From NCBI RefSeq assembly GCF_003334335.1, contig NZ_QOWQ01000090.1: DNA of 2,270 nucleotides; one strand, given 5' to 3'. This document shows, piece after piece, positions 1,278-2,270 of this stretch. A program made the translations under genes and the position numbers. Within the stretch, counting starts at the first letter, position 1, and each line of letters starts with the position of its first letter. Source of the DNA: Escherichia coli (lineage in GTDB: Bacteria; Pseudomonadota; Gammaproteobacteria; Enterobacterales; Enterobacteriaceae). The notes beneath the pieces are model-generated. The model searched no databases. It saw nothing but the letters and a program-made list of their open reading frames with translations, and was not told the DNA's origin.

Positions 1278-2270
1278 TTATGCTTTCCACTTCAGAACAC
1301 CCGAATTTCTCGCGTGCATTAAAAAACGAATCAGCAACAACAGCTGACTGCCGTGTTTCTCTTCAAAATCTTTTACTCCGGCGTGTAGTTCGTTATGGCA
1401 TTTACGGCACAACGGAATAACAAACAAATCGTCAGCCTTTGTTCCCATACCTCCCAGTCCATGACCAATGATGTGATGCGGATCATCTGCCTGATTGCCA
1501 CACGTCATGCATTTCTGCGTTTTTACCCAGCGCGTGTATACAGGCATCTCTTCCCGTTGTGGTTTCTGGCGCTGGAGGTACTGAGCCGGAGACTCCGGAT
1601 CAACGGTGATGCTTACTAACGTCTTTTCCTGGGGTGGGGGCTGTTGCTGGTGGACGTGAAGTGGCAGCGCAATATTTTTTGTGCGCTGCTTCAGTATGCT
1701 GATGGCTGTCTGTTCTCCCGGTACGATGTCACTCTCACGGTATACGGAGCGGATTTTTTCCACCGGTAATCCCAGCGAACGACGCAATACAGACTCCGGA
1801 AGCGCATCAGCCACCTGATGACAAACCGCCCACCAGCATAACTCTGCCAGCGACAGTTCCCGCTCCTGTGTGCCATTCATTGCGTGACGTATGACATCAA
1901 TCATCCTGGCTGCCAGATTCTGCTGAGCAAGTTGATCGAGTGATTCTGATGTCTGGTCGCGCAGCTGGTTGTCACAGTGCCAGCACAACACCATCGCGCC
2001 GGTACCGTAACGGTGAATGACGGTTTCGCTGTGATGATAATCACCGTGTGGCCACTGGCAGGATTTCACGTGACGTAATAACCAGTCAGACAGTGCACCA
2101 GCGCCACCCGCAGCACGAATCACCCGTTCGTTGCTGAAAAATGGCAGTAATGTTTTATCCTCTGCCAGCGGCTGTCGAACGGCAGGAACGACTCCGGACG
2201 GCAGATTACGCATGCTTTTCGGTTCCGGCTCCACCAGTACCCGGGTATTGTGGAATACCGGCATGGATTC
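1278..2270 (-). CDS. DUF968/NinG-like phage protein with C-terminal HNH-type (His-Me finger) nuclease motif; resembles YdfU-like proteins of lambdoid prophages
   Basis: A 328-codon open frame runs from ATG at 2264..2262 to TAA at 1280..1278, and the frame stays open to the window edge at 2270, so the true start may lie upstream. The C-terminus (residues 252-294, about nt 1383..1511) reads CxxC...DPHHIIGHGLGG...LCRKCHNELH, matching the HNH pattern of two CxxC pairs, an HH dyad, an Asn and a terminal His. The stop abuts the rusA start (TAAATG). The position immediately upstream of rusA and a Q-like gene is where NinG/Rap-type genes sit in the lambdoid nin region. Confidence 0.8.
   Translation of the reverse strand, partial: ESMPVFHNTRVLVEPEPKSMRNLPSGVVPAVRQPLAEDKTLLPFFSNERVIRAAGGAGALSDWLLRHVKSCQWPHGDYHHSETVIHRYGTGAMVLCWHCDNQLRDQTSESLDQLAQQNLAARMIDVIRHAMNGTQERELSLAELCWWAVCHQVADALPESVLRRSLGLPVEKIRSVYRESDIVPGEQTAISILKQRTKNIALPLHVHQQQPPPQEKTLVSITVDPESPAQYLQRQKPQREEMPVYTRWVKTQKCMTCGNQADDPHHIIGHGLGGMGTKADDLFVIPLCRKCHNELHAGVKDFEEKHGSQLLLLIRFLMHARNSGVLKWKA

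Follow-up and report, generated by a model that had tools for sequence, protein, structure and literature searches.

The window analysed here, a 2,270-nucleotide (nt) stretch of Escherichia coli contig NZ_QOWQ01000090.1 (assembly GCF_003334335.1), carries three genes, all on the minus strand: a gene of the DUF968 family, a gene for a RusA-family resolvase and a gene for the antiterminator Q. We focused on the DUF968 gene, which its sequence identifies as a common E. coli prophage gene of the ydfU (DUF968) family. Homology and modelling place a nuclease domain of the His-Me finger type at the C terminus of its product and, very probably, a second module of HNH-like fold in its N-terminal domain, where a predicted zinc site is conserved and the catalytic histidine is missing. 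The parts of the gene are as follows, with residues numbered from the true start of the protein:

1278..2270 and beyond, minus strand: YdfU-family (DUF968) coding sequence (CDS), residues 23-352 plus the stop codon (open reading frame (ORF) list; RefSeq WP_024192039.1)
1752..2270, minus strand: N-terminal domain, true residues 23-195 in the window (the domain runs from residue 1 to about 195)
1872..2111, minus strand: predicted N-terminal HNH-like (treble-clef) module, residues about 76-155
1974..2060, minus strand: span of the four predicted zinc-ligand codons (C93, 2058-2060; H101, 2034-2036; C118, 1983-1985; C121, 1974-1976)
1557..1751, minus strand: variable linker, residues about 196-260, gap-rich and with large insertions and deletions in alignment A1
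1281..1556, minus strand: C-terminal His-Me finger (HNH) nuclease domain, residues 261-352

The original prediction, made from the letters of the window, had described a protein of 328 residues carrying two HNH-like Cys/His motifs. Both motifs are present in the minus-strand ORF, CQWPHGDYHHSETVIHRYGTGAMVLCWHCDNQL at nt 1962-2060 in the N-terminal module (N-module) and CMTCGNQADDPHHIIGHGLGGMGTKADDLFVIPLCRKCHNELH at nt 1383-1511 in the C-terminal module (C-module). That length results from the cut at the window edge: the reading frame stays open up to the window's final base, and the RefSeq CDS encodes 352 residues. The GTG start codon lies 66 nt past the window end (14271-14336 of prophage locus L001), so that the first 22 codons are outside, and the ATG at 2264 encodes the internal Met25. 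Because 24 N-terminal residues were missing, residue n of the original numbering is true residue n+24. These extra 24 residues are conserved in distant homologues and were confidently modelled as β-strands.

Profile searches, which had been proposed as a check, returned the expected families. Pfam DUF968 (PF06147) matched residues 136-320 of the 328-residue query over model positions 1-169 of 171 (E = 4.1e-64), the His-Me finger family HNHc_6 matched the C-module (E = 2.6e-7), and PHROG 96, annotated 'HNH endonuclease', covered the whole protein (E = 1e-153). The protein is 100% identical to RefSeq DUF968 CDSs and 78% identical over 348 residues to YdfU of the K-12 Qin prophage (ydfU, L009 3256-4305). 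The identity to K-12 YdfU is mosaic: the N-terminal domains agree at 88-91%, the linkers at 77% and the C-terminal parts at 47-76%, which suggests recombination within the gene between prophage alleles. For conservation analysis, 32 full-length and 45 N-terminal domain homologues from a search of 1.8 billion representative proteins were aligned, the latter at 20-54% identity. Apparent fusions of the N-terminal domain to tail-fibre, J-like and portal-like sequences (P0143, P0144, P0146, P0147, P0154, P0173, P0178, P0180 and P0226) were rejected because all share one identical N terminus that is joined at different break points; from their sequences they look like assembly chimeras or rearranged prophage ORFs or deletion junctions.

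The C-terminal ~90 residues form, as homology and modelling show, a His-Me finger of the Ref/YbcO/HNHc_6 type. Beyond the HNHc_6 match, several PHROG HNH families were matched with scores down to 3e-8, and the generic Pfam HNH family PF01844 reached only 0.08. Profile alignment with hhalign gave the C-module a probability of 92% (P = 6e-7) against the DUF1364/YbcO family and of 95% (P = 2e-8, 37% identity over 68 columns) against the HNH domain of Gp16 of the Staphylococcus phage phiNM1, and the HNH core of the module is homologous to those of P1 Ref and phiNM1 Gp16. For residues 236-352, AlphaFold2 gave a model (mean predicted local distance difference test (pLDDT) score 91) with the ββα-metal arrangement: helix 265-271 and a C276-x2-C279 knuckle, then strand 285-288, whose last residues are H287-H288, and, past a long G-rich loop, strand 306-309; C310 comes next, followed by helix 311-319 bearing C313, H314 and H318, and by two further helices. 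The histidine at the end of strand 1 and the metal-binding histidines of the helix are thus both in place. In alignment A3, H287 and H288 (positions 52 and 53) and H314 and H318 (79 and 83) are at least 90% conserved and D303 (68) is invariant; N315 is not conserved. The spacing C-x2-C-x8-H...C-x2-[CH]-H-x3-H is the same as that mutated in phiNM1 Gp16 (PMC12817073). By homology and modelling, C276, C279, C310 and C313 form a structural zinc site, H288 at the end of strand 1 acts as the general base, and H314 and H318, possibly with H287, hold the catalytic metal.

The C-terminal HNH is real, but it was already known: DUF968/YdfU was placed in the His-Me finger superfamily together with DUF1364/YbcO in 2017, as group 7 of Jablonska et al., where the RusA and Q neighbours were also noted (PMC5714182), and the nuclease prediction for YbcO dates from 2016 (PMC4999995). 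The description of the family as one of unknown function therefore needs qualifying by this published placement, although it holds in so far as we found no experimental paper. Among the full-length homologues of alignment A1, P0191, P0205, P0236 and P0222 have lost the HH pair and the helix histidines of the C-terminal HNH and keep the N-terminal four-ligand site; their C-modules are presumably inactive, judging by these residues. P0182, P0190, P0211, P0221, P0225 and P0247 have lost cysteines of the C-module zinc site and keep its histidines.

The N-terminal Cys/His pattern is no mere product of chance. Among the 45 N-terminal domain homologues, C93 is present in 44, position 101 is Cys or His in 43, C118 is present in all 45 and position 121 is Cys or His in all 45. 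Position 101 is divided between His (22) and Cys (21), position 121 is His in 32 and Cys in 13, and the prevailing ligand combinations are CCCH (21), CHCC (11) and CHCH (10). This interchange of Cys and His at two of the four invariant positions argues for a structural zinc site rather than a catalytic dyad, and the occurrence of Cys at position 101 in half of the homologues indicates that H101 behaves as a zinc ligand. C93, C/H101, C118 and C/H121 fit a structural zinc site, the predicted ligands being identified from the pattern of substitution. Around these positions, Q94 is found in 41 of 45 homologues, W119 and D122 in 40 each, and H120 and N123 in 29 each. The two adjacent histidines that the original prediction had read as an 'HH dyad' of a degenerate active site do not behave as one: H101 is a predicted zinc ligand and H102 is present in only 20 of 45. 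Several of the residue-by-residue parallels that had been drawn between the two modules are likewise peculiar to this sequence: besides H102, the N-module residues H97 and H108 vary among the homologues, and conservation is also lacking at N315 of the C-module.

No profile library connected this region to a described domain. Pfam models gave no match to residues 1-159 of any of the 45 aligned members, the N-terminal domain profile found nothing among PDB sequences, and neither NCBIfam nor the PHROGs other than the protein's own family were matched. With hhalign, the N-module showed no significant similarity to DUF1364 (P = 0.12-0.15), and the N-terminal domain did not match lambda NinG (P = 0.61).

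Structure prediction, also proposed as a check, was more informative, both modules being modelled with HNH-like element order. The AlphaFold2 model of residues 1-200 (pLDDT 94, predicted template modelling score 0.80) begins with a small β-rich and helical region. Next come helix 79-89 and a loop (90-104) that holds C93 and H101, then two strands, 105-110 and 113-118, separated by a tight turn, the second with C118 at its end; C121 lies in the first turn of the helix that follows (119-125), and a long helix, 131-152, comes after it. In the model this order of elements corresponds to a treble-clef or ββα topology, the same order as in the C-module, and the predicted ligands are laid out as in a treble clef, in the loop, the hairpin 105-118 and the start of the helix. 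From this topology and the conservation we infer the clustering of the ligands and the residue register.

The best PDB matches of the N-module model are HNH nucleases, for the most part entries that the C-module matches as well. They include ScoMcrA (score 5.2), IscB (5.0), EcoKMcrA (4.2), GVE2 HNH (4.0), P1 Ref (3.9; 63 residues, 3.2 Å), Cap5 (3.8), an HNH-Cascade subunit (3.7), YbcO (3.4; 58 residues, 2.6 Å), TagI and Hpy99I (3.3 each) and ZRANB3 HNH (3.2). Twelve of the top twenty N-module matches also appear in the 39-entry C-module list, where about 0.02 would be expected by chance, and the entries common to both lists include three non-HNH ones (9hmo, 8j07_c2 and 8fn2_Z). Because 58 (N-module) and 69 (C-module) of the 81 modelled residues of YbcO are aligned, the two modules must have 46 or more YbcO positions in common. 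A Foldseek search of the N-terminal domain against AFDB50 returned DUF968-family proteins only, among the 50 matches listed, and no outside annotation. On the model and these matches, the N-terminal module very probably has an HNH-like fold.

What the N-module does not have is the active site. In YbcO the catalytic histidine ends strand 1 (PMC4999995). In the N-module there is no catalytic histidine at this place: strand-1 positions 108-110 are variable (108 is T, M, L, A or H; 110 is Y in 12, H in 7 and V in 6 of 45), and H101 sits before strand 1, in the loop, where together with C93 it forms an expanded first knuckle, C-Q-x6-[C/H]. The long G-rich inter-strand loop of the C-module is replaced by a two-residue turn, and no HNH-clan profile matches. 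D122 occupies, in the model, the helix position that matches H314 of the C-module, and may cap the helix or be left over from the metal site. The N-module is best described, from model and alignment, as a YbcO-like HNH unit that retains the structural zinc but no longer has an active site, which fits the idea in the original prediction of one catalytic and one structural copy. As a degenerate HNH-like module it appears to be previously undescribed, and the literature searches made here on the family and on related HNH proteins yielded no account of a tandem pseudo-HNH and HNH architecture.

The two modules are joined by the linker, which contains a Q/P-rich stretch and ends in a conserved VDPExP...PK motif. 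Over residues 191-200 the pLDDT is down to 83, and over 236-245 to 71, and the linker is probably flexible. Within the N-terminal domain, the Pfam DUF968 model begins at a conserved helix, ELCWWAVCHQ (residues 163-172, window 1821-1850), which weakly resembles the pre-knuckle helix of phiNM1 Gp16 (ALLYWATINR; hhalign P = 0.015) and its counterpart in the C-module (YTRWVKT); the likeness may be fortuitous, or the helix may be what is left of another repeat.

Whether the two modules arose by internal duplication, as had been proposed, is less clear from their sequences. Smith-Waterman comparison with shuffles gave p = 0.12 for the N-module against the C-module, and the best local match (KPGRESMPVF with KPQREEMPVY, p = 0.02) lies outside both. 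With hhalign the pair reached P = 0.04-0.05 at a probability of about 1%, similar to a control of the N-module against the linker (P = 0.08), and a column-shuffle test gave an empirical p of about 0.04. The hhalign alignment of the two modules is, however, colinear over 90 columns, and it pairs the pre-helix with its Trp, the second knuckle, the junction of hairpin and helix, and the post-helix. For calibration, the C-module aligned with lambda NinG at P = 0.004 over 13 columns, and its profile reached YbcO in the PDB at E = 0.65; by sequence, undisputed His-Me families also score poorly. The C-Q-x6-C first knuckle is conserved in the YbcO/DUF1364 family (26 sequences; K-12 ybcO, L010 3085-3375). 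That the N-module shares the C-Q-x6-[C/H] form with YbcO, its own C-module having CxxC, hints that the N-module derives from a YbcO-like unit. The duplication is plausible, with the colinear alignment in its favour and marginal sequence statistics. We tentatively suggest, as a possibility some way short of an even chance, that an ancient duplication of a YbcO-like HNH unit with inactivation of one copy produced a single-chain 'pseudo-dimer', in which the dead copy would hold RecA or the DNA (branched or D-loop) in position while the live copy makes a single nick.

The alternative is that the N-module is an independent treble-clef zinc finger of no shared ancestry with HNH domains or the C-module, its likeness being convergent or generic and its role still structural or DNA-binding. 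We hold this to be a genuine alternative, though rather unlikely. Treble clefs are considered polyphyletic (PMC4999995), and the N-module lacks significant sequence similarity to the C-module, DUF1364, NinG, Pfam families and PDB sequences, the same shortfall that bona fide His-Me relatives show in the NinG calibration. An unrelated finger would also have to account for aligned lengths of 58-94 residues, more than a bare zinc-finger core, for the recurrence of the odd non-HNH entries in the C-module list, for the colinear 90-column alignment and for the first knuckle in common with YbcO/DUF1364.

The reading that we favour, and hold to be reasonably probable, is that the gene encodes a YdfU-family nuclease with a live C-terminal His-Me finger, a variable linker and an N-terminal zinc-binding, dead copy of the same fold, acting on recombination or replication intermediates. 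The DUF968 gene would be expressed from the early-right operon with RusA and Q. In the N-terminal domain of ~195 residues, the core at ~76-155 would be a second copy of the ββα/treble-clef fold, with the zinc site kept and the catalytic His lost; it could not cut DNA by the HNH mechanism and would most likely serve as a DNA-binding, partner-binding or self-association module. The domain is under selection of its own, since homologues without the catalytic histidines of the C-module keep the N-terminal site, and a binding or self-association role is the natural reading. By analogy with P1 Ref and phiNM1 Gp16, the nearest relatives that have been characterised, the C-module would most likely nick D-loops or branched DNA in a metal-dependent manner, possibly stimulated by RecA, and the enzyme would act upstream of the RusA resolvase. 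Metal-dependent nicking is most likely because of the conserved catalytic residues and the homology to Ref and Gp16, and recombination or replication intermediates are the likely substrates because of the constant location of the gene among such genes and its frequent pairing with RusA and Q.

Several points weigh against this nuclease reading. Dependence of YdfU-type proteins on RecA, as well as the choice of substrate, is extrapolated from relatives with different N-terminal regions. Pfam, the PDB profile search and the hhalign comparison with DUF1364 (P = 0.12-0.15) link the N-module to no HNH family, and a literature search found no experimental paper on YdfU or DUF968 of the enterobacterial type. 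RusA is not a constant neighbour: RusA and/or Q lie downstream in the homologue loci inspected, and RusA is missing beside the gene in K-12 Qin and in two distant homologues.

This inconstancy of RusA would also suit a main role in vivo in regulation or conflict, such as inhibition of host replication or interference with competing elements, rather than in recombination nicking, with the nuclease dispensable in some lineages. Consistent with such a role, P0191, P0205, P0236 and P0222 lost the catalytic histidines and kept the N-terminal domain, phiNM1 Gp16 inhibits host growth and replication (PMC12817073), and one member of the family carries a transcriptional regulator annotation (PMC5714182). 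We nonetheless think it improbable: most members keep the active site, with H288, H314 and H318 at least 90% conserved in A3, the PADLOC models of known defence systems gave no match, and in the loci inspected the genes of the family consistently lie among those for phage replication and recombination.

Some HNH enzymes use acidic residues or Asn as metal ligands. A second active site of non-canonical residues in the N-module, with D122 as metal ligand in the C-W-H-[HC]-D-N helix start and two centres that might make double-strand cuts, would make use of the conserved D122, W119, H120 and N123 and of the match of D122 to H314, but is very improbable because the module has no general base, positions 108-110 at the end of strand 1 holding no conserved His, and it also lacks the long G-rich loop and a match to any HNH hidden Markov model.

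The nuclease reading also bears comparison with known systems. K-12 YdfU has the same three-part layout and the same position upstream of a Q-like antiterminator, with the difference that in Qin no RusA gene lies between ydfU and Q, whereas one does here. YbcO of DLP12 and phage 82 (DUF1364; PDB 3G27) fills the same slot, immediately upstream of rusA in DLP12, but is a single domain of 96 residues without N-terminal domain or linker. Its first knuckle is C-Q-x6-C in place of the CxxC of the C-module, and its conserved strand-1 His and long G-rich loop are what the N-module lacks. P1 Ref, a RecA-dependent HNH endonuclease (PDB 3PLW), has an unstructured basic N-terminal segment of 76 residues where the present protein has a folded, predicted zinc domain.

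In phiNM1 Gp16, a NinB-like domain is combined with an HNHc_6 domain, and the C-module shares with the latter the zinc/His spacing and the HNHc_6 match. Both genes are early in their phages and lie close to genes for replication and recombination; phiNM1, too, has RusA nearby. Work of 2026 showed that Gp16 is a nickase, that RecA stimulates it, and that mutations at the equivalent zinc/His positions impair it (PMC12817073). The enterobacterial protein itself bears no Orf/NinB-like N-terminal domain, a candidate that we rejected for the YdfU type because Pfam and the PDB fold comparison of the N-module show none. Curtis et al. are said to have described in 2014 DUF968 proteins with such an Orf/NinB-like domain, these being Gram-positive 'DUF968'/HNHc_6 proteins.

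The original prediction had placed the gene where lambda has NinG/Rap, a branched-DNA endonuclease (PF05766) that likewise lies in the nin region upstream of Q. The setting directly upstream of RusA and Q in a nin-like region was borne out, but the slot is that of YbcO in DLP12 and only loosely that of NinG, as NinH and NinI lie between NinG and Q in lambda. The layout of NinG is analogous: its N-terminal Cys-rich zinc motif (C-x4-C-x13-C-x2-C) is followed by a charged linker and then by an HNH with zinc at the C terminus. The protein has no Pfam NinG match, and hhalign aligned 13 columns at the zinc knuckle (P = 0.004) and nothing for the N-terminal domain; by sequence, NinG is a positional and architectural analogue, not a family member. 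A precedent for such a loss of catalysis comes from Smad MH1, an inactive, DNA-binding His-Me finger (group 16, PMC5714182); it is eukaryotic, unrelated in sequence, and has no active copy in the same chain.

For a gene that is very common in E. coli prophages and includes the K-12 y-gene ydfU, these results give a concrete domain map, with a Ref/Gp16-type nickase domain and a folded, predicted zinc-binding, inactive copy of the same fold. They suggest a role beside RusA in the processing of phage recombination intermediates and would add a small example of His-Me fingers recycled as non-catalytic modules. This is a useful refinement of a known, uncharacterised prophage family and no new class of system.

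The remaining features of the window are as follows:

912..1277, minus strand: RusA-family Holliday junction resolvase gene (PHROG 34, E = 5e-56; RefSeq annotation)
232..915, minus strand: antitermination protein Q gene (PHROG 304, E = 2.5e-102; RefSeq annotation)
242-214, minus strand: promoter-like site TTGCAA-17-TATATT, directly after the Q stop codon (consensus scan only)
159-145, minus strand: GC-rich hairpin with T-run, just downstream of Q (consensus scan only)

The sequence TAAATG joins the DUF968 stop codon directly to the RusA start, and in ATGA the stop of RusA and the start of Q overlap. The RusA homologue scored 84 bits against the NCBIfam RusA model, below the cut-off of 200, despite its strong PHROG 34 match, and is by sequence a divergent member of the RusA family. 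The promoter-like site and the hairpin (145..242) resemble the lambda PR'/tR' late leader on which Q acts; an Rfam scan of the window, this region included, brought no family to threshold. A lambdoid prophage of E. coli JE86-ST05 contains the 2,270-base window at 100% identity. Of 5426 complete E. coli genomes, 3667 have a match to it at lower identity, 1178 of them over at least 80% of its length. In the full prophage the three genes are preceded by replication genes, hokD and a small unknown ORF, and followed by a methyltransferase gene, tRNA genes and lysis genes; the set is the nin-like region of the early-right operon of a lambdoid prophage. TerB-family and DUF3927 genes (L001 9554-10146) are located 5' of a SASA/NanS-like esterase gene and 3' of Q, of the methyltransferase gene and of three tRNA genes, in the slot where Shiga-toxin phages have their stx genes.

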